Assembly (NCBI GenBank): GCA_963752475.1
Contig: CAVVYR010000006.1
Location: 160,001 to 224,000 of the forward strand
Reading direction: 5' to 3'
Length of the DNA: 64,000 bases
Origin: an uncultured Chloroflexia bacterium
Lineage (GTDB): Bacteria; Chloroflexota; Limnocylindria; Limnocylindrales; CSP1-4
Made by a program: the position numbers and the translations under genes. Shown here in pieces: positions 1 to 51,651 of the stretch (the first letter of the stretch is position 1; the number at the start of each line of letters is the position of its first letter). The notes beneath the pieces were generated by a model that saw only the letters and a program-made list of their open reading frames with translations, was not told the origin of the DNA and did no database searches.

Positions 1-43
1 TCACACAGCACCCGCCCGTAGTCGGTTGTCGTGTCGCCCCCAT

Positions 44-357
44 CGACGCCATCGGCCCGGTCCCGCAGCACCTGCTCGTAGAGCAACTCGTCGTGTCGCC
101 CCCATCGACGCTATGGGCCGCTCGTGGTCGGTTGTCGTCCCTGGCGACGCTACGACCCGATTCGGCCGATCGATGTAGTCACTCGTCGCTGGGGTCGACG
201 CTAGTCTCGCGAGACCGTGCTGCGTGGCGCTCGGTGGCAGCTGGCCTGTTCACGGCTATGCCCAGCCACGCTCATCGCGCGCCCTCATGGTCGGCCACGA
301 CCCGGATTCGCTGGCTACGAGTGTGACTGGCGTCGACCGGGACGACGGCTGTCCACA
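44..357 (+). repeat. Left arm of ~315-bp inverted repeat flanking the HTH-nuclease gene
   Basis: Reverse complement aligns to 1064-1385 with about 18 substitutions and one 8-bp duplication (manual alignment, ~94%). Confidence 0.95.
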
Positions 358-414
358 GGTCCCGGCCAAGCCACCGCTAAGTGCACGCGAAGCGACGCCC
401 GCGATGCTGTCTCG

Positions 415-1149
415 ATGGATGACATGAGGATCGGCGCGGCGATTCGCGCCGTGCGAGTTCGACGGCGATGGAGACAAGAAGACGTGGCGGTTCGGGCGGG
501 CGTTCCTCGGTCGCTCGTCTCTGACATCGAGCGCGGTCACTTCAGCACCACGTCTCTGGCTCGACTGCGAGCGGTGGCGAGTGCACTCGACGTCAGGATC
601 GATCTCGTTGCACGCTGGCGCGGCGGTGAGCTTGCCAGGCTCCTCAGCGCGAGGCACTCGGCACTGCATGAGGCGATCGCCGCGTACCTTGCGCGTCTCC
701 CCGGCTGGGAGTTCGCATCCGAGGTCTCGTTCTCGATCTACGGGGAACGTGGTGCCATCGACATCCTGGCGTTCCATCCTGCGACTCGCTCGCTCTTGCT
801 CATCGAGCTGAAGACGGAGATCGTCGACGTCAATGAGTTGGTGGGCACGCTCGATCGCAAGACTCGTCTTGCGCGTCGGATCGCGGCCGAGCGTGGCTGG
901 GAGGCTCGATCGGTGAGTCGGTGGGTCATCGTCACACGCGACAAGACGAACCAGCGGCGTATCGAGGCGCACCGCTCGATGTTGCGAACGGCATTGCCGG
1001 CCGACGGCCACGCGATGCGGAGTTGGCTCGCGCATCCAGCGGCGTCGATCTCCGGCCTATCGATGTGGACAGCCGTCGTCCCGGTCGACGCCAGTCCCAC
1101 TCGTAGTCAGCGGATCCGGGCAGTGGCTGGCCATGAGAGCGAACGATGA
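415..1149 (+). CDS. XRE-family HTH fused to PD-(D/E)XK restriction-endonuclease-like domain
   Basis: N-term IRAVRVRRRWRQEDVAVRAGVPRSLVSDIERG (XRE HTH); C-term EVSF..GAIDILAF..LLLIELKT (E..D..ExK motif). Start set at ATG 415 because the longer ORF begins inside the left repeat arm. Confidence 0.8.
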   Translation: MDDMRIGAAIRAVRVRRRWRQEDVAVRAGVPRSLVSDIERGHFSTTSLARLRAVASALDVRIDLVARWRGGELARLLSARHSALHEAIAAYLARLPGWEFASEVSFSIYGERGAIDILAFHPATRSLLLIELKTEIVDVNELVGTLDRKTRLARRIAAERGWEARSVSRWVIVTRDKTNQRRIEAHRSMLRTALPADGHAMRSWLAHPAASISGLSMWTAVVPVDASPTRSQRIRAVAGHESER

Positions 1150-1385
1150 GCGTGGCTGGGCATAGCCGTGAACAGGCCAGCTGCCACGGAGCGCCACGCA
1201 GCACGGTCTCGCGAGACTAGCGTCGACCCCAGCGACGAGTGACTACATGGATCGGCCGAATCGGGTCGTAGCGTCGTCAGGGACGACAACCGACTACGAG
1301 CGGCCCATAGCGTCGATGGGGGCGACACGGCGACACGACGAGTTGCTCGACGAGCGGGTGCTGCGGGATCGGGCCGATAGCGTCG
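1064..1385 (-). repeat. Right arm of inverted repeat; overlaps the last ~28 codons of the nuclease gene
   Basis: Inverted copy of 44-357. Confidence 0.95.
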
Positions 1386-1444
1386 GTAGGTACGTCGAAC
1401 GTAGCACCGGCTGGGTTGCTGCGTCGGACGGGGAGCCCGGAAGC

Positions 1445-6635: not shown

Positions 6636-9127
6636 TTCTTGAACGATGCCAACAGCTGGATCGGTCCGGCGGCCTTGCCCTTGCCGTTGAGCACGACGAA
6701 GTCGGCCAGCCCGTTCTTGTCGTAGTCGAGCGCGACGACGTCATCGCCGCGGCCCTTCCTGGTGCCGGCCTGGGGGATCTTGACGGAGGTGAACCTGGTG
6801 CCCTTGCCGTTGTTGACCAGCAGCTGGTCGGCACGGTTGATGTCCGTGCCGCCACGCACGATGTAGATGTCTGCGCGCTTGTCGCCGTTGACATCCCCGG
6901 CGGCGACGGCCTGGGCCTTGTCCGTCTTGCGTTCGTAGACCTTCTTGAAGCTGGCCCCCTTGCGGACGCTCACGCGCACGCGGTTGCTGGCCAGCTGGAT
7001 GAGGTCATCCTTGCCGTCGCCGTTGACGTCGGCCATGGTCACGTCGATGTCGCCGATGGGCTTGACGCCCACGGCCCTGGTGCGGTCCAGGAGCTTGCCG
7101 CCCTGGTTGCGATAGATACGCAGCCCGGGGGTGCCGCCGCCCACGGGGAAGCGGGCGCAGAGCAGCAGGTCCTCGTCCTTGTCGCCGTCCACGTCGATGC
7201 CATCGGCACAGTAGCCGCCGATCGGCCGGTCGAGCCCGATGCCCGGAGCGCTCCTGAATGAGCCCCTGACGTTGCGGTAGAAGCGGTTGGTCGAGGGATA
7301 GACGTCCTCTCGCTCCGGCTGCGAAACCATGTACGCCTCGGGGTACTTGTTCTTGTCGAGCCTGATGAGCGCGACGCTACGACCGCGCCCGAGCGGATCG
7401 GCGATGCCAGCGACCTCGCGATCGAAGCGGGGGTTGGGTCCGGCCACGTCGTAGGACAGCTCGTGGTGGTTGATGGATGTGCCGTAGCGCCGGCCCGTGA
7501 TGCAGAGGACGTCGAGCCAGCCGTTGTTGTCGACATCTCCGACGTCGCAATCGTGCCGGTCCACGAGGCTGAAGGCGGTGTTGGGTCCGTCGGAGAACGT
7601 CCCGCCCTCGTTCAGCGCCAGCTTGGGCGCGCCCTGATGGCGCGAGACGAAGACATCCATCCAGCCGTTCTTGTCGAAGTCGCCCACGTGGGCGTGGTAC
7701 GTGCGCGTGGTCTCAGCCAGGCCTGCCGCCGCCGCCATGTCCCTGATGACGAAGTCCGAGGCCCGGACCGGGGCCCTGGCCGGGGAGATCCGGCGCGACG
7801 GCGCCACGTTGGGCATCGACTCGTCGACGACATGGGCTTCGCGCGACTTCTTGCGCTTCTGGATGGCGCCGACCTTGAGCTTGCGGGCGTTGCCCGAGGC
7901 CACGTCAGGGGAGGGCAGGTCGCAGGTTCGCAGTACCAGCGCGGTGAAGCCGATGGTGCCGGTGACGACCGCGCCATCGTCGGTGGCGTCGACCGACTGG
8001 AGGCTGGAGCGGACGTCCGCGGGTGTGTCGATGTAGCGATGCGTCCAGCGTCCGGCATCACGGTGAGCCACGAAGCCGCGGGTCTCGCGGTTCTCGTTGG
8101 CCAGCTGTGTGCCGGCCATCCAGAGCTCACCATTGGCCTTGGCATCAAGGCTCTGGGGGATGGCCGAGACGCCGACCCACCTGAGGATCTCGCGCTTCCA
8201 ACGCTTGCCATTCCACTTCAGCATGAAGGGCGTGTGCTTGGCGCTGTTGCCCTTGACGAGATAGCCGATGGCCCAGCCCTTGCCGTTGGCGGGCATGGCG
8301 ATGTCCGTGAGCACGGCCGTGCCTGCGGGCACCGGTCCGGGTGCGACCGCCTTCCACTTGCCCCTGACGTTCTTGAGGATGAGCGGGCGCATGGTGCCCC
8401 GCTGCTTGCGCCAGCCCACGGCCCAGACGGTGCCGCCGGGGCTCCTGCTCACGCCCAGCAGGCCTGATCCGCCCTTGGGGAAGGGATCGTTCCGGACCCA
8501 GCGGCCATTCCTGCGTTCCAGGATGAGGGCCTTCCAGAAGCCCTTGTCGAGGTATGAACCCACCGCGGAGCCACCGCCGCTGGGCAGGGTGGCCACGTCG
8601 GCCACGGCGGCGTTCACGCGGGCGCCGATGGCGACGGGCTCCTTCTTGAAGACGTTCTTGACGTAGCGACCGACGAGCGGCGAGATCTCCGCGCCCCACG
8701 CAGGCCGCTGGTAGCCACCCACCAGCCAGAGGCCGTTGCCCCGAGCCTGGCCGTCCGCGAGTCCGCGACGCAGTGGGGACTTGGTGTCCCTGGCCACGAG
8801 CCTCTTGCCGTTCCACTTCAGGGCCATGGGACCGCTGTGGCCACCACCCACGACCCAGTCGAGCTTGCCCTCACGCACGACGGAGCCTTGCGGGATGTCG
8901 TTGAAGCTGCCGTCGGGAATGAACAGCTCCTGCCAGCCGTTGGTGCACGCGCCCACGCCGGAAGCGGCAGCCACCGGGGCAGGCCGGGGTGCGGCTGGTA
9001 CCAGGAGCGCGGCGCCCAGGACAGCGACGACCAGCGCCTTGAAGCGGTTCGAGAAGGTCACGGCAACTCCGACCCTAGCACTACTTCGGGGGATCGGCAG
9101 GACGAATACGACAGACTGTCGTACCAA
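6632..9127 (-). CDS. Secreted beta-propeller + FG-GAP/VCBS repeat protein (paralog 1)
   Basis: Same architecture; stop overlaps the next start. True start may be GTG 9061. Confidence 0.85.
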   Translation of the reverse strand: MVRQSVVFVLPIPRSSARVGVAVTFSNRFKALVVAVLGAALLVPAAPRPAPVAAASGVGACTNGWQELFIPDGSFNDIPQGSVVREGKLDWVVGGGHSGPMALKWNGKRLVARDTKSPLRRGLADGQARGNGLWLVGGYQRPAWGAEISPLVGRYVKNVFKKEPVAIGARVNAAVADVATLPSGGGSAVGSYLDKGFWKALILERRNGRWVRNDPFPKGGSGLLGVSRSPGGTVWAVGWRKQRGTMRPLILKNVRGKWKAVAPGPVPAGTAVLTDIAMPANGKGWAIGYLVKGNSAKHTPFMLKWNGKRWKREILRWVGVSAIPQSLDAKANGELWMAGTQLANENRETRGFVAHRDAGRWTHRYIDTPADVRSSLQSVDATDDGAVVTGTIGFTALVLRTCDLPSPDVASGNARKLKVGAIQKRKKSREAHVVDESMPNVAPSRRISPARAPVRASDFVIRDMAAAAGLAETTRTYHAHVGDFDKNGWMDVFVSRHQGAPKLALNEGGTFSDGPNTAFSLVDRHDCDVGDVDNNGWLDVLCITGRRYGTSINHHELSYDVAGPNPRFDREVAGIADPLGRGRSVALIRLDKNKYPEAYMVSQPEREDVYPSTNRFYRNVRGSFRSAPGIGLDRPIGGYCADGIDVDGDKDEDLLLCARFPVGGGTPGLRIYRNQGGKLLDRTRAVGVKPIGDIDVTMADVNGDGKDDLIQLASNRVRVSVRKGASFKKVYERKTDKAQAVAAGDVNGDKRADIYIVRGGTDINRADQLLVNNGKGTRFTSVKIPQAGTRKGRGDDVVALDYDKNGLADFVVLNGKGKAAGPIQLLASFKK

Positions 9128-46978: not shown

Positions 46979-47514
46979 GTGAGTCAAAGAAGCCAACCGT
47001 CGCGACCGTCTGGCTGGACGGGTGCTCGGGATGCCACATGTCCCTGCTGGACATGGACGAGCGCATCCTCGACATCTTCACCCGGTCGGACCTCGTGTAC
47101 AGCCCGCTGGTCGATTTCAAGGACTATCCCGACGAGGTGGACGTCTGCCTCGTCGAGGGTGCGGTGTCGAGCCAGGACGATCTGGACAAGGTCAAGAAGG
47201 TGCGCGAGCACACCAAGACGATCATCGCCTTCGGCGACTGTGCGGTCACCTCGAACGTGCCCGGCATGCGCAACCCCTTCGGCACGCAGGCCATCCTCGA
47301 CCGCGCCTACCACGAGAACGTCACCGTCAACCCGCAGACACCCACCGAGAACGTGCCGCCGCTGCTGGCGATGTCCAAGCCGGTCCATACGATCATCGAC
47401 GTGGACGTCTTCCTGCCCGGTTGCCCGCCGTCGGCGGACCTCATCTACACCATGCTCGACGACCTGCTCTCCGGCCGCGTGCCGGAGGTCGCCGGCTCGC
47501 GGTTCGGCCGCTAA
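46975..47514 (+). CDS. hoxY: [NiFe] hydrogenase small subunit HoxY
   Basis: [20 protein letters not shown]. Confidence 0.92.
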
Positions 47515-47528
47515 GGGAGCCCCCACCC

Positions 47529-48947
47529 ATGAGCAAGACCATCACCATCGATCCGGTCACGCGGATCGAAGGCCACTCCAAGATCACCATCCAGCTCGAC
47601 GAGGGCGGCCAGGTCACGGACGCCCACTTCCACGTCACGCAGTTCCGAGGGTTCGAGAAGATCGTCGAGGGCCGTCCGGTCCACGAGATGCCCTCGATCA
47701 TGGCCCGTATCTGCGGCATCTGCCCGGTCAGTCACCTCGTCGCCTCGGCCAAGGCCGTGGACGACATCCTGGCCGTGGACCCGCCGCCCGCGGGTGCCGA
47801 CATCCGCCGGCTCATCAATCTTGGCCAGATCGTGCAGTCGAACGCGCTCTCGTTCTTCCATCTCTCCAGCCCTGACCTGCTCTTCGGCTTCGACGCCGAC
47901 ATGTCCAAGCGCCACATCGTGGGCGTGGCCCAGGAGAACCCGCAGCTGGCCAAGGACGGCATCGCCCTGCGCAAGTGGGGCCAGCAGATCATCGAGCGCC
48001 TCGGCGGCAAGCGCATCCATCCCGGCGGGGTCATCCCCGGCGGTGTGGCCGAGCCGCTGACCGAGGAGGTCCGCGACGAGATCCTGGCGGGTGTGCCGGA
48101 GGCCCTCGAGCGCATCACCCGCACCATCGAGTGGTACAAGAGCAAGATGATGGGCTGGGAGGAGGAGGCCACCCACTTCGGTGACTTCCGCTCCGCCTTC
48201 ATGGCCCTCGTCGACGAGAAGGGCAACGTGGACCACTACGGTGGCCGCCTGCGCTTCGTCGATGCAGACGGCTCGGTGCTCGAGGACTTCGACCCCAAGG
48301 ACTTCAACGACTACATCGGCGAAGCCGTGGAGCCGTGGTCCTACCTCAAGTCCACGTACTACAAGCCCATGGGCTACCCCGACGGCATCTACCGCGTGGG
48401 CCCGCTCGCGCGCATGAACGTGGCCGAGGCCTGCGGTACGCCGCGTGCCGACGAGGAGCTCAAGAAGTTCCGCTGGCGCGTCGGCCGGGTGGCGAGCTCG
48501 TCCTTCCACCAGCACTACGCGCGCCTCATCGACCTGCTCCACTGCATCGAGAAGATCGACCAGATCCTCAACAAGCCGGAGATCATGTCGACACATGTGA
48601 CGGCCACCGCGGGCATCAACCGCAACGAGGGCATCGGCTGCTCCGAGGCTCCGCGTGGCACCCTGATGCACCACTACAAGGTGGACGACAACGGCCTGGT
48701 CGAGTGGGCCAACCTCGTCATCGCCACCGGCCACAACAACATGGCCATGAACCGCTCGGTCGCGCAGGTCGCCAAGGCCTACGTCAAGTCCGACAAGATC
48801 GAAGAGCCGATGCTCAACCGGGTCGAGGCGGTCATCCGTTCCTACGACCCTTGCCTCAGCTGCTCGACGCACTCGCTCGGTGACATGGCGCTGGACATCC
48901 AGCTCCTGTCGCCGGAGGGCGAGGTCATCGACCGCATCAAGCGCTGA
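47529..48947 (+). CDS. hoxH: [NiFe] hydrogenase large subunit HoxH (group 3d)
   Basis: RICGICP (L1) and DPCLSCSTH (L2) with a cleavable C-terminal tail. Confidence 0.94.
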
Positions 48948-48963
48948 CCCGCTGCCACCGGAC

Positions 48964-49500
48964 GTGAGTCCACTCGAGAGCGCCGCCCCTGGGGGAGGGA
49001 GCGGCGCTCTTGCGCGTTCCGTGCTGGTCCTCGGCTATGGCAACACGTTGCGGCGGGACGACGGTGCCGGGGCCGTGGCTGCGCGCCTGCTGGCGGCCGA
49101 TCCGCGCCTTGCTCGCCCCGAGGTCGAGGTGCGCGAGGCCTATCAGCTGCTGCCGGAGATGTCGATGGACATCGCGGAGGCCACGCTCGTCGTCTTCGTC
49201 GATGCCGACATGCGCGGCCTGCCCGGCGCTCTCGAGATCCACGAGATCGACCCTGGGACCGCAGCGCGTGACGATGCCGATGCGCGAGGCGATCCGGGAG
49301 CGTCATCGCACCACGTCGGAGGTGGCGAGCTGGTGGCGCTGGCCGCGACGCTCTCAGGTCGCGCGCCGGAGGCCGTGGCCATCGGCATCGGCGTGGCCGA
49401 CCTGGAGCTGGGGGAGGGCCTCAGTCCGGCCGTGGAAGCGGCCCTACCCAGGGTCGTCGAGATCGTGGCCGACCTCGTGGAGGAGCACCTCAGCCATTGA
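48964..49500 (+). CDS. hoxW: Hydrogenase maturation protease
   Basis: VLGYGNTLRRDDGAG, VFVDA, SSHH, GEGLS; follows hoxH. Confidence 0.82.
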   Translation: MSPLESAAPGGGSGALARSVLVLGYGNTLRRDDGAGAVAARLLAADPRLARPEVEVREAYQLLPEMSMDIAEATLVVFVDADMRGLPGALEIHEIDPGTAARDDADARGDPGASSHHVGGGELVALAATLSGRAPEAVAIGIGVADLELGEGLSPAVEAALPRVVEIVADLVEEHLSH

Positions 49501-49557
49501 GGCTGCCAGCTGGAAACCCGGACTCCACAGGCCTGGGATCGACCTCGCTCGGGGTCG

Positions 49558-49736
49558 GGAGCAGCCACCTCGACGGGGCAGCAGCCACCTCGACCGGGAG
49601 CAGCCACCTCGACGGGGACGGCCACCTCGACGGGGCACAGCCACCTCGACGGGGCGCAGCCACCTCGACGGGGAGCAGCACCTCGACCGGGAGCAGCACC
49701 TCGACGGGGCGCAGCCACCTCGACCGGGAGCAGCAC
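49558..49736 (+). repeat. Tandem array of nine 18-20-bp units, consensus GCAG(C)CACCTCGAC(C/G)GGG
   Basis: CACCTCGAC counted 9 times at ~19-bp spacing. Confidence 0.9.
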
Positions 49737-49983
49737 CGACCGCTCTCGCTGCTGCCGCCGTGTCGCCTCCATCGACACCGCACGCAGCTTGTGGTCAGGC
49801 GTCGCCAGGGCCGACCCTACCGGCCGATCCGGTGGATCCAGATGGACATATGTCGGCGAGGTCGACGGTAGTCCGACGGGCTGGTGGTCCTGGTGGTCGG
49901 ATCGACGTAGACGTGGCGCCGGCTATGCCCAGCCACGCTCGGTGCAGGCCATCGATCGCCTCGATCGGCCGGATCTCGTGACT
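49737..49983 (+). repeat. 247-bp direct repeat copy 1, interrupted at its 3' end by the IS
   Basis: Matches 51285-51531 with 2 substitutions. Confidence 0.93.
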
Positions 49984-50053
49984 GCTATGAAGGGGGCCTC
50001 ACTGGTGAGACAGTGGGTTCTCTTCGGAACCAGCACCAGGAGGCCCGGAAGCC

Positions 50054-51086
50054 ATGTTATACGCCGGATTGGACCTGTCACGGAGGAAGCTCGACGTCCA
50101 TGTCCTCGACGAGGACGGGGCCACGGTCGAGGCGCTCGCGGTCCATCCCGATGCCGACGCGCTGCGGACACTCGCGGAGCGCTTCCCCGGGCCCGTGACC
50201 GCGACCATCGAATCGATGAACGGGGCCCGCTTCGTGCATGACGAGCTGCAGGGCCACGGCTGGGACGTGCTCATCGCCGACGCGGCCAGGGTCAAGGGCC
50301 TCGCACCGCTCGCGGCCAAGACCGACGAGATCGACGCGCGGGTGCTCGCGATCCTCGCCTGGCGCGACCTCGTGCCCGCGGTCTGGCTGGTCCACCCGGC
50401 CATCCGTGCCGAGCGCGAGCGTGCCCGCTATCGGCTGTACCTCGTGCGCCATCGCACCTCGATCAAGAACCGGGTCCACGCCACGCTCTTCGCGTTCGGC
50501 CACAGCGTGCCCGCCACGGACCTCTTCGGGGTCCGGGGCCGGGAGCTGCTCGCGGCGCTCGAGGTCCCCGAGCCCTGGGACCGGACGCTCGCAGCGAGCC
50601 TCGCGCGGCTCGACGCGCTCGAGGCCGAGATCCGCGGCTGCGAAGCCGAGCTGGCACGGCTCGGGGCCGACCACGAGTACGTGCCGCTGCTTGCGGACGG
50701 TGCCGGGGGTCGGGCCCATCCTCGCCTACACCATCGCCGCGGAGATCGGCGACATCGGCCGCTTCGCGAGCGCCAAGCGGCTCGTGGGCTACACCGGGCT
50801 CTGTCCCCGGGTCTACCAGTCGGGCGGGACCGACCGGCGCGGGAAGCTGGCCAAGACCGGCCCGAAGTACCTGCGCTGGGCGCTCGTCGAGGCCGCGGTC
50901 CACGCGGCGAGCCATCCACGCTATCGGAGGAAGTACCAACGCACCAAGCGCCGGCTCGGCAAGCAGCGGGGCAGTGGGGTGGCACAGGTGGAGCTGGCGC
51001 GCGAGCTGGCCACCGCCATCTGGTACATGCTCACGCGCCAGGAGCCGTTCCGAGCGGCAGGCCCCCCTCGTAGTCTGGTCGCCTGA
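50054..51086 (+). pseudogene. IS110 DEDD recombinase/transposase with one frameshift at ~50691
   Basis: GLDLS, IES, KTDEIDA (RuvC DEDD); then TVPGVG..RFASAKRLVGYTGLCP..QSGG..LRWALVEAA in another frame. Confidence 0.88.
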
Positions 51087-51200
51087 CGACCCTCGTGTGA
51101 CTTGGGCCGCCGCTGTCACCTACCAGCCAGGTCCTCCCAGCAGGAGGCACATAGAGACATGAGACGCGTTACCGCATCCGCTCCACGACCGCCGCCGGCT
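51060..51200 (+). ncRNA. Candidate bridge/seek RNA of the IS
   Basis: CTCGTAGTC (51067-75) is the reverse complement of target GACTACGAG; GTGACT (51097-102) matches the left target; CATAGAGAC (51150-58) matches the donor end 51211-19. Boundaries approximate. Confidence 0.6.
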
Positions 51201-51220
51201 TGACGATCTTCATAGAGACT

Positions 51221-51288
51221 ACGAGCCCGACTACGGTCGGCTCCAGCGACAGGCGACTACGAGCCTGACTACGGTCGGCTCCAGCGAC
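51221..51288 (+). repeat. 38-bp hairpin-containing unit, 1.8 copies
   Basis: ACGAGCCYGACTACGGTCGGCTCCAGCGACAGGCGACT; stem GAGCC(y)GAC / GTCGGCTC. Confidence 0.88.
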
Positions 51289-51531
51289 CGCTCTCGCTGC
51301 TGCCGCCGTGTCGCCTCCATCGACACCGCACGCAGCTTGTGGTCAGGCGTCGCCAGGGCCGACCCTACCGGCCGATCCGGTGGATCCAGATGGACATATG
51401 TCGGCGAGGTCGACGGTAGTCCGACGGGCTGGTGGTCCTGGTGGTCGGATCGACGTAGACGTGGCGCTGGCGATGCCCAGCCACGCTCGGTGCAGGCCAT
51501 CGATCGCCTCGATCGGCCGGATCTCGTGACT
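51285..51531 (+). repeat. 247-bp direct repeat copy 2 with intact IS target
   Basis: Near-identical to 49737-49983. Confidence 0.93.
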
Positions 51532-51651
51532 ACGAGCCTGACTACGGTCGGCTCCAGCGACAGGCGACCACGAGCCCGACGACGGTCGGCTCCAGCGACA
51601 GGCGACCACGAGCCCGACGACGGTCGGCTCCAGCGACAGGCGACCACGAGC
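51532..51651 (+). repeat. Three tandem 38-bp hairpin units
   Basis: Units at 51532, 51570, 51608; no variable spacers. Confidence 0.9.

Follow-up and report, generated by a model that had tools for sequence, protein, structure and literature searches.

An HTH gene with a predicted PD-(D/E)XK nuclease domain coupled to a dispersed inverted-repeat family in Limnocylindria: a candidate REPtron-like pair

Dispersed palindromic repeats are common in bacteria. To our knowledge, the only ones with an enzyme of their own are the repetitive extragenic palindromes (REPs) of the GTAG type, which have the RAYTs; REPs of the CGTC type lack such an enzyme, as stated in PMC3733652. Whether an enzyme of another class could serve such repeats is the question raised by a 64,000-nt stretch of DNA (the window), which comprises positions 160001–224000 of contig C6 in genome G000, a member of the Limnocylindria (Chloroflexota) with an assembly of 4.25 Mb in 38 contigs and 88.8% completeness. 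Near the start of the window, a single gene lies between two long, inverted members of a genome-wide repeat family, and its 244-aa product is an XRE-type helix–turn–helix (HTH) protein with a predicted PD-(D/E)XK nuclease domain. In this study, the locus, its repeat family and its counterparts in related genomes were analyzed computationally. The descriptive account given below of the repeat family, its coupling to the gene, an insertion and an inversion is held with high confidence. That the HTH nuclease is the partner of the repeats in a REPtron-like pair is a proposal to which we give an even chance.

The interval between the arms codes for one gene only (415–1149, plus strand). The arms themselves, 88–357 and 1064–1333, are inverted with respect to each other over 270 nt with 94% complementarity; a second inverted pair, 39–100 and 1329–1390, extends over 62 nt at 90%, and a gapped BLAST alignment of 44–357 with 1064–1385 gives 91.9% across 322 columns. 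An initial annotation, made from the letters of the window, had described inverted repeats around a single 244-aa gene, which are indeed present, and had assigned the end of the gene to the right arm. The latter was borne out: the arm starts at 1064, inside the Met217–Trp218 codons, and encodes the last 28 residues of the protein together with the TGA stop at 1147–1149. Two further points of that annotation are revised here. It placed the start of the left arm at 44, but the outer part of this arm is a tandem array of 60-nt units, and this array already starts 54 nt ahead of the window. It also took arms of ~315 bp for the terminal repeats of one gene-enclosing element, whereas each of them is a complete copy of a small repeat, and the repeat termini face the gene. 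Each arm is composite, with a ~190-nt unit bounded by 33-nt terminal inverted modules and then tandem module-like units. The features of the locus are as follows.

1–119, minus strand: outer tandem array of the left arm, 60-nt units × 2.9, from C6:159946 (TRF; 7946–8119 of locus L146)
100–357, minus strand: left arm, a full repeat-family unit, inverted (nhmmer 2e-59, model positions 1–258; covariance model 1.6e-33)
Parts of the left arm: module A 325–357, with its terminus TGTCCACA at 350–357; central box ~255–277; module B 174–206
358–414, plus strand: leader from the left arm to the start codon, 57 nt (alignment of 13 upstream regions)
415–1149, plus strand: nuclease gene, with the HTH at residues 5–66, the predicted PD-(D/E)XK domain at ~80–220 and a disordered tail at 222–244
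1064–1321, plus strand: right arm, a full repeat-family unit (nhmmer 2.7e-60; covariance model 1.2e-33)
Parts of the right arm: module A 1064–1096; central box 1145–1167 with the stop TGA at 1147–1149; module B 1215–1247
1322–1390, plus strand: tandem module-like units at the outer end of the right arm, the partner of 39–100

A fold-back artifact of assembly is excluded by 18 differences between the arms together with an 8-nt indel, and also by the recurrence of the two-arm locus with diverged arms in two other genomes (G013 and G064). A promoter and terminator scan of 1–1500 returned no sites. About 50 nt of the 57-nt leader are conserved across homolog loci of several clades, with the motif TAAG..GAAGC. 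At four other loci, L070 (G035), L071 (G029), L072 (G026) and L180 (G069), a leader motif of ~25 nt (GGTAAG..GAAGC) is repeated in tandem three to six times at 50–250 nt upstream of the gene start, and these tandem copies look like an array of operator-type sites.

Solo arms elsewhere had been proposed in the initial annotation, and the arms do belong to a family of 34 near-full copies with insertion polymorphism. The arm matches many sites in G000 at about 70% identity; an nhmmer search with a 13-copy profile found 110 matches in this genome, 38 of which are near-full at E < 1e-19, and the 34 non-redundant copies are these 38 less those on contigs C23 and C24, which duplicate a region of C8. 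The two contigs repeat ~10 kb of C8 (221–231 kb), including two repeat units with unchanged spacing, which probably reflects strain heterogeneity in the assembly and is consistent with its contamination estimate of 5.8%. All copies start sharply at TGTGGACA, which opens the 33-nt module A and is followed within it by GTCG-N7-CGAC and then AGTC. The center of the unit, ~120 nt long, is variable but contains an invariant box, GAGCG..GGGCAT, which holds the stop codon in the gene-linked copy. Module B is an inverted module A, after which come tandem B-like units of ~38–60 nt, and the unit as a whole measures ~190–260 bp. Over 33 nt, modules A and B are 72% complementary in the 34 copies, so that the unit is bounded by terminal inverted repeats. 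The modules hold xTAG and then CGTCG-N5-7-CGACG, with CGTC lying within the stem and the modules forming part of the 190–260-bp units. The units are extragenic: 27 of the 34 could be classified by a crude gene call based on G+C content at third codon positions (GC3), with 13 between convergent genes, 14 between co-directional genes and none between divergent genes, and no unit lies inside a spanning open reading frame (ORF). A census of the central box by regular expression was discarded as too loose, with 19 of 46 matches in coding sequence. In a tree of 63 units, most branches are long and the genomes are intermingled, with a few young genome-specific clusters.

The relation between this repeat and the gene extends well beyond the window. 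The 47-nt stretch at codon Trp218 was compared with the DNA downstream of it at 75 homolog loci outside G000; an inverted match at a distance of 90–330 nt (score ≥12) was found at 28 of them, as against none of 375 control windows within the same genes (Mann–Whitney p 1e-17). The unit begins at the same codon in the closest relatives (G014, G013, G035, G026, G024 and G064). Comparable arrangements occur in more distant members of the family with repeats of their own. In paralog P3 of G000 (45% identity, contig C19), the 3' end from the Phe-Trp codons is the terminal repeat of at least four solo ~200-bp elements in this genome. The genome of a gene with 59% identity (L076) likewise contains solo elements with the terminal repeats of that gene, as three both-ended and two single-end matches. 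In the elements of the P3 and G073 types, the terminal inverted pairs are clearer than in the arm family; the cognate-repeat result was less clear in a third genome (L107). Paralog P2 (63% identity) has a 3' inverted pair with the stop within the same box. An upstream inverted copy was found at 8 of 78 family loci, as compared with 3 of 390 controls, and most loci have the 3' copy only.

The C-terminal residues bear on the same relation. The tail motif TRSQRIR, in its cross-clade form W..P.TRSQR[IV]R, is spelled by the DNA CTCGTAG..CGGATCC, and CTCGTAG is invariant or nearly so in an alignment of 23 units (21 of them non-coding); we infer that the protein tail follows a constraint at the DNA level. 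Furthermore, the solo copies C26, C6b and C7a share 8–20 nt more with the coding sequence upstream of the unit, which hints that this young subfamily was derived from a gene-linked copy. As judged from the sequences, the gene family is physically coupled to the repeats, with modules that differ by gene clade and match the solo elements of the same genome.

The two domains of the protein differ in how they were recognized. The HTH, at residues 5–66, is an XRE-type domain in Pfam (HTH_37, 1.1e-10; HTH_3, 2.7e-10), and its structural matches in VIA are HipB, C.AhdI and C.BclI at Z of 10–11. Beyond the HTH, Pfam and NCBIfam contained no family above threshold, the best being YhcG_C (E 0.0055) and YraN (E 0.002), and a PDB sequence profile matched the HTH domain and nothing else. 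An AlphaFold (AF2) model built from 28 sequences has a mean predicted local distance difference test score (pLDDT) of 83.9, and its residues ~80–220 match PD-(D/E)XK nucleases in VIA at Z of 8.0–9.3 over 104–127 residues with 11–17% identity. These matches comprise the XisH-type 2okf (Z 9.3), AF1548, NucS, VC1899, Can2/Card1 and the R2 endonuclease domain (Z 8.0), and the PDB entries include 1y88, 2vld and 1xmx. A VIA Z near 8 is common for any model, and the catalytic motif therefore bears much of the weight: E103, D116, E131 and K133 (E..D..ExK) are invariant in all 28 aligned sequences. The best Foldseek match was the Shedu nuclease SduA, with a template-modeling (TM) score of only 0.26. 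The XRE HTH and the E..D..ExK restriction-like core claimed in the initial annotation are supported by these results (Pfam 1e-10, AF2 pLDDT 84, VIA Z 8–9.3 and the residues invariant in 28/28). They agree with a five-helix HTH_3-type domain and with the alpha-beta-beta-beta-alpha-beta core of the PD-(D/E)XK superfamily. Its likeness to TnsA stands as far as the fold class, which both proteins have in common, and no further; TnsA does not appear among the 50 VIA matches listed, and this absence alone rules nothing out.

The part of the ORF encoded by the arm is a disordered tail after the last strand, because residues 222–244 have pLDDT below 50. The start codon at 415 is backed by the 28 aligned homologs, a few of which are annotated with longer N-termini. 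A GTG at 217, which would give 310 aa, was ruled out as the start: a start residue (M or V) is aligned with codon 415 in all of the 28 sequences but two, which are N-terminally shorter. The close relatives of the protein are all from Chloroflexota, mostly from metagenome-assembled genomes of Limnocylindria/Limnocylindrales; GTDB genomes yielded 311 loci of the family, and the ESM Atlas returned only 'hypothetical protein' clusters from Chloroflexota.

The history of the locus can be read from its neighbors. The left arm is preceded by lgt (LGT, 2.8e-49), and the right arm is followed by a convergent gene for an FG-GAP protein. Among 30 lgt loci read, the 1.54-kb arm-gene-arm block occurs between these two genes only in G000, G013 and G064. 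At least 18 of the 30 are empty, with the FG-GAP match ending ≤~60 nt from the lgt match, and seven of the junctions have spacers of roughly 5–55 nt. Empty orthologous sites, proposed as a check in the initial annotation, thus exist, and they include genomes that carry P1-type genes, the type of the window gene, at other loci (G035, G024 and G026). The comparison identifies the block at lgt/FG-GAP as an insertion. An inversion between the arms had also been considered, and the center is inverted in G064: when its 3.7-kb contig (L067) is set against G000 and G013, the central 0.8 kb is forward and both flanks are reversed. After such an inversion the gene would take its tail from the other arm, which encodes one just as long and ending at the same stop. 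The inverted state rests on one assembly, in which mis-orientation by the assembler is unlikely because the arms of G064 are only ~69% alike. The arms of G013 and G064 show 58–69% identity both among themselves and with the G000 arms, and the two G000 arms share 94%, from which recent gene conversion or replacement between the G000 arms may be inferred.

Both orientations were also sought in the assembled (Logan) contigs of four sequencing runs, none of which bridges an arm from flank to center. The joints on opposite strands in run X3 are what the inverted repeat itself yields. One contig of run X4 joins lgt to the FG-GAP gene, skipping 1635 nt, at 90% likeness, and is probably from a relative with an empty site. 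No recombinase was found beside the locus, the neighbors of which are Lgt, the FG-GAP protein, VIT1, OCD and others, and no DDE partner (TnsB) or further Tns genes flank it. Elsewhere, P1-type genes occur in at least three contexts, and G029, G026 and G069 show synteny at the P2 locus. At one further locus, G014, G026 and G024 have gene and unit and G000 (at the end of C8) has the unit alone. At C7:409282–410460, G000 has a different, 372-aa ORF with a long Pro/Glu/Ala-rich repeat tail where G035 (L070), between identical neighboring genes, has the nuclease gene and unit; this is a gene replacement, not an empty site.

Copies of the unit without a gene are found in the same window at 49.7–51.65 kb, where the initial annotation had noted 'solo arms'. 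These are genuine family members (nhmmer E 3e-32 and 3e-40), but their placement is due to an insertion sequence (IS) of the IS110 family that inserted into a unit.

49767–49985, minus strand: unit without module A (model positions 40–258), abutting the IS110-family element
49984–51221, plus strand: IS110-family IS inside the repeat (DEDD_Tnp_IS110 and Transposase_20, in two overlapping frames)
51315–51571, minus strand: full family unit, then 38-nt tandem units at 51528–51651

The IS110 element is surrounded by direct repeats of 250 nt with 99% identity (49734–49983 and 51282–51531). Contig C26 carries a further copy at its end (99.9%), and a partial copy (99%) lies at C6:98861–99358, beside a unit cut at model position 155; the cuts in units, at positions 40 and 155, each fall at the inner edge of a module. 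IS110-family elements such as ISPpu9 insert into REP-like repeats (PMC8450116). The targeting of units by IS110 does not make IS110 their mobilizer, and no IS110 gene is present near 1–1400. Y1_Tnp (PF01797), the RAYT domain, was found in none of the six repeat-bearing genomes searched (G000, G013, G064, G006, G014 and G035), the search being positive in 6 of 14 control genomes. Tandem arrays stand beside both units of the cluster, at 49557–49734 (19-nt units × 9.5, GGGAGCAGCCACCTCGACG) and 51528–51651 (38-nt units × 3.3), and their unit sequences are unrelated to each other.

Two solo copies of G000 were compared with five relatives by nhmmer, and a unit was found at the orthologous site in none of the five for either copy. 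For the first, the flanking genes are 11–57 nt apart in three of the five relatives, with other sequence in the remaining two; for the second, one relative has a spacer of 21 nt and another has ~220 nt, and in two there is 1.1 kb of other sequence. Both copies fall in young genome-specific clusters of the 63-unit tree.

The distribution of the repeat was determined across 49 genomes with a covariance model (R1, sequence only, 23 units), an earlier BLAST search with the arm having been underpowered, with 15 candidates scored per genome. The P1-type repeat is present in 11 of the 49, with 51 matches in G000, 28 in G013, 20 in G064, 15 in G006, 9 in G014, 7 each in G026 and G035, 4 in G069, 3 in G024 and 1 each in G022 and G070, counts that overstate the units, as one unit may score on both strands. 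Of 36 congeneric genomes searched, 27 have members of the protein family, as many as six matches in a single genome, and the family is absent from all 24 genomes of the sister family; on copy number and synteny, which the initial annotation had singled out for a check, it is multi-copy and patchy. P1-type genes, assigned by identity and synteny, are carried by G000, G013, G064, G014, G026, G035 and G024, the last as a copy split across two frames. All seven of these genomes have at least three R1 matches, and 29 of the 33 other genomes tested for gene and repeat have none.

The reading that we favor begins with the insertion of the arm-gene-arm block between lgt and the FG-GAP gene in this lineage. 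Recombination between the arms would then have inverted the center in one species and homogenized the arms in G000. The HTH domain would recognize the dyad modules, and the nuclease domain would cut at or near the unit termini. The protein would thus be a dedicated partner that spreads, maintains or homogenizes the repeats, a counterpart on a restriction-like nuclease of the pairs RAYT/REP or TIRYT/TIR (terminal inverted repeat). A wider proposal, which we advance tentatively and hold somewhat short of an even chance, is that the HTH-guided PD-(D/E)XK nucleases of Limnocylindria are an independent REP/RAYT-like solution, mobilizing and maintaining clade-specific ~200-bp elements by transposition or gene conversion, with the gene anchored by ending inside the element.

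If this were true, repeat biology would gain a class of enzymes from which no bacterial transposase working by itself is known, and orphan repeat families of other phyla might be explained. It would also provide a small DNA-binding nuclease of 244 aa with a defined natural target of ~33 bp. Independently of the mechanism, the repeat units, empty sites and inversion are markers of genome dynamics for an abundant uncultured lineage of soil and freshwater.

Several observations weigh against the favored reading. Binding and cutting of the repeats by the protein are putative, a proposal drawn from sequence and models. Pairing between modules A and B is 0.724 within a copy and 0.705 between copies, with 49 of 2000 permutations as high, and the predicted fold of the unit is no more stable than those of shuffled sequences (z −0.57), which leaves a hairpin substrate unsupported. 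RNAalifold on 36 copies found local 4-bp GTCG/CGAC stems only, and mismatches of the G.U and C.A types number 103 and 76, with no asymmetry; the A/B relation looks like conserved sequence rather than a maintained hairpin. Given the 4-bp stems, the marginal A/B pairing and this z score, a hairpin substrate and a guide RNA were dropped as leading ideas. Most units are old and diverged (~70% identity), units of different genomes are intermingled in the tree, and activity, if any, would be slow. Spacers are not conserved between species at the target-site junctions when compared with empty sites, and no clean duplication can be defined. The locus with the unit alone in G000 fits gene loss or gain beside a resident unit equally well, and solo copies of the P2-type repeat were sought in G000 and none was found. 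On the side of distribution, G006 (64% complete) has its 15 R1 matches with no gene found, and the only gene of G069 is a P2-locus copy containing a stop, alongside four R1 matches. The co-occurrence of gene and repeat is inflated by the one unit that each gene brings by construction and is confounded by phylogeny, as the repeat-bearing genomes may form one subclade.

Four other explanations were weighed against the same evidence. The main rival, which we nevertheless regard as unlikely, is that the gene is a hitch-hiker or homing gene: the repeats would spread by other means, and a selfish gene recognizing the unit terminus would be copied beside resident units by break repair. Homing would suit a gene that without exception adjoins a unit at its TGTGGACA terminus and that is found, the syntenic P2 locus aside, in three or more contexts. 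It would also suit the solitary unit of G000 at the site where gene and unit stand together in G014, G026 and G024, as well as the IS110 copies, which show units serving as insertion targets. However, head-to-head unit pairs, which would be possible empty homing sites, are absent among the G000 matches, and the empty lgt/FG-GAP sites lack any unit, which implies that gene and units arrived there together or in steps. Clade-specific modules that match solo families fit a partner as well as a parasite. A coincidence of unrelated neighbors, in which ordinary REP- or miniature inverted-repeat transposable element (MITE)-like repeats lie beside a regulator or defense-type nuclease with an inherited 3' insertion and a second arm by chance, is less likely than homing and in our view distinctly improbable. 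It would account for units that lie only downstream of genes (none of the 27 classifiable copies is divergent), and the P1-clade genes could share their 3' unit by descent; REPs within gene ends are known (PMC3733652), and SduA, the best Foldseek match, is a Shedu defense nuclease, though with the low TM score already given. The same codon is nevertheless used in clades of 45–59% protein identity with different modules, the Trp218 test separated 28 of 75 loci from 0 of 375 controls, the cross-clade tail follows the CTCGTAG invariant of the solo units, and PADLOC gave matches at E ≤ 1e-4 to HTH models only.

The two remaining explanations are also less likely than homing. A programmed switch, in which frequent and regulated inversion of the arms would toggle the C-terminal tail or the expression of the gene, is the least probable and is hardly to be expected. 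The arms of G000 are inverted and 94% identical, the other arm would supply an equal tail and stop, and an inverted state exists in G064; yet the nuclease is the sole inter-arm ORF and no recombinase is nearby, disorder is predicted for the tail that would be toggled, the arms in G013 and G064 retain only 58–69% identity after decay, and a single inversion among three species is explained by rare homologous recombination. A cis-acting RNA is slightly better placed but still very doubtful. The unit would then be a structured 3' untranslated region or a small RNA (a terminator, stabilizer or guide-like RNA) and the solo copies would be RNA genes. Such a role suits units that are located downstream of genes and, at the nuclease gene, one that overlaps the ORF end and runs ~170 nt downstream, a geometry known for other nuclease-associated RNAs. 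Against it are the folding and mismatch results given above, the absence of a terminator-like site, and a search of Rfam with 1–1600 of the window, which returned no match at E ≤ 1.

A few features of the surroundings are recorded for completeness. Positions 1445–~9000, on the minus strand, hold a row of paralogous genes for FG-GAP repeat proteins, the first of 885 aa; positions 1489, 4154 and 6670 are connected by direct repeats within the row. On the other side of the locus, outside the window, a 15-nt tandem repeat × 6.3 (GGCGGGCCGGATGGC) lies between a VIT1-family gene and lgt (C6:158574–158667; 6574–6667 of L146). Just upstream of the repeat/IS110 cluster, 47022–49500 contains a [NiFe]-hydrogenase large-subunit-like gene and a HycI-type maturation protease, the latter sub-threshold at 21.5 bits against a cut-off of 23.

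The locus may finally be compared with known systems. Like the MITEs (Correia/NEMIS, ERIC, RUP and Nezha), the units are 70–300 bp in scale, non-coding, bounded by terminal inverted repeats, dispersed beside genes and polymorphic in their insertion. MITEs, however, are deletion derivatives of an IS with its transposase between the same termini, whereas here the gene is outside the unit and against its terminus; in addition, the enzyme differs from those of IS and MITE systems in being none of DDE, DEDD, HUH, serine or tyrosine recombinase, and no clean target duplication could be defined. The protein shares a fold class and catalytic motif with TnsA of Tn7, the R2 endonuclease and XisH of the fdxN element, but those act with a DDE transposase, a reverse transcriptase or a recombinase, none of which adjoins the gene. 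The resemblance to IS110 elements of the ISPpu9 type, in that IS110 sits in repeat units, concerns the solo copies at 49.7–51.6 kb and not the nuclease locus. No description of the HTH-nuclease family or its repeats was found in the literature searched, the scope of which was the articles themselves.

The closest comparison is with REPtrons and TIRtrons. Here, as there, a single small gene lies between inverted copies of a genome-dispersed repeat (in G000 and likewise in G013 and G064). The flanking repeats of REPtrons and TIRtrons may overlap the 3' end of the gene (PMC3733652), and in a comparison that draws on this paper the 3' overlap, the clade-cognate repeats and the extragenic units at convergent or co-directional genes all have their parallels here. 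The modules carry xTAG beside a short CGTCG..CGACG palindrome, which partly recalls the GTAG or CGTC tags of the imperfect palindromes in REPs, with CGTC here inside the stem. The differences lie in the repeats, which in REPs are hairpins of 20–40 bp and here are units of 190–260 bp with 33-nt terminal modules and tandem tails; in the genes, of which there are up to six matches per genome in varying contexts in a host from the Chloroflexota (Limnocylindria); and above all in the enzyme that defines a REPtron, in place of which an XRE HTH with a predicted PD-(D/E)XK domain stands where the HUH tyrosine transposase of the IS200/IS605 type would be. The analogy with RAYTs and REPs that the initial annotation had drawn is apt: a gene lies between inverted copies of a dispersed repeat, with an enzyme of a different class.

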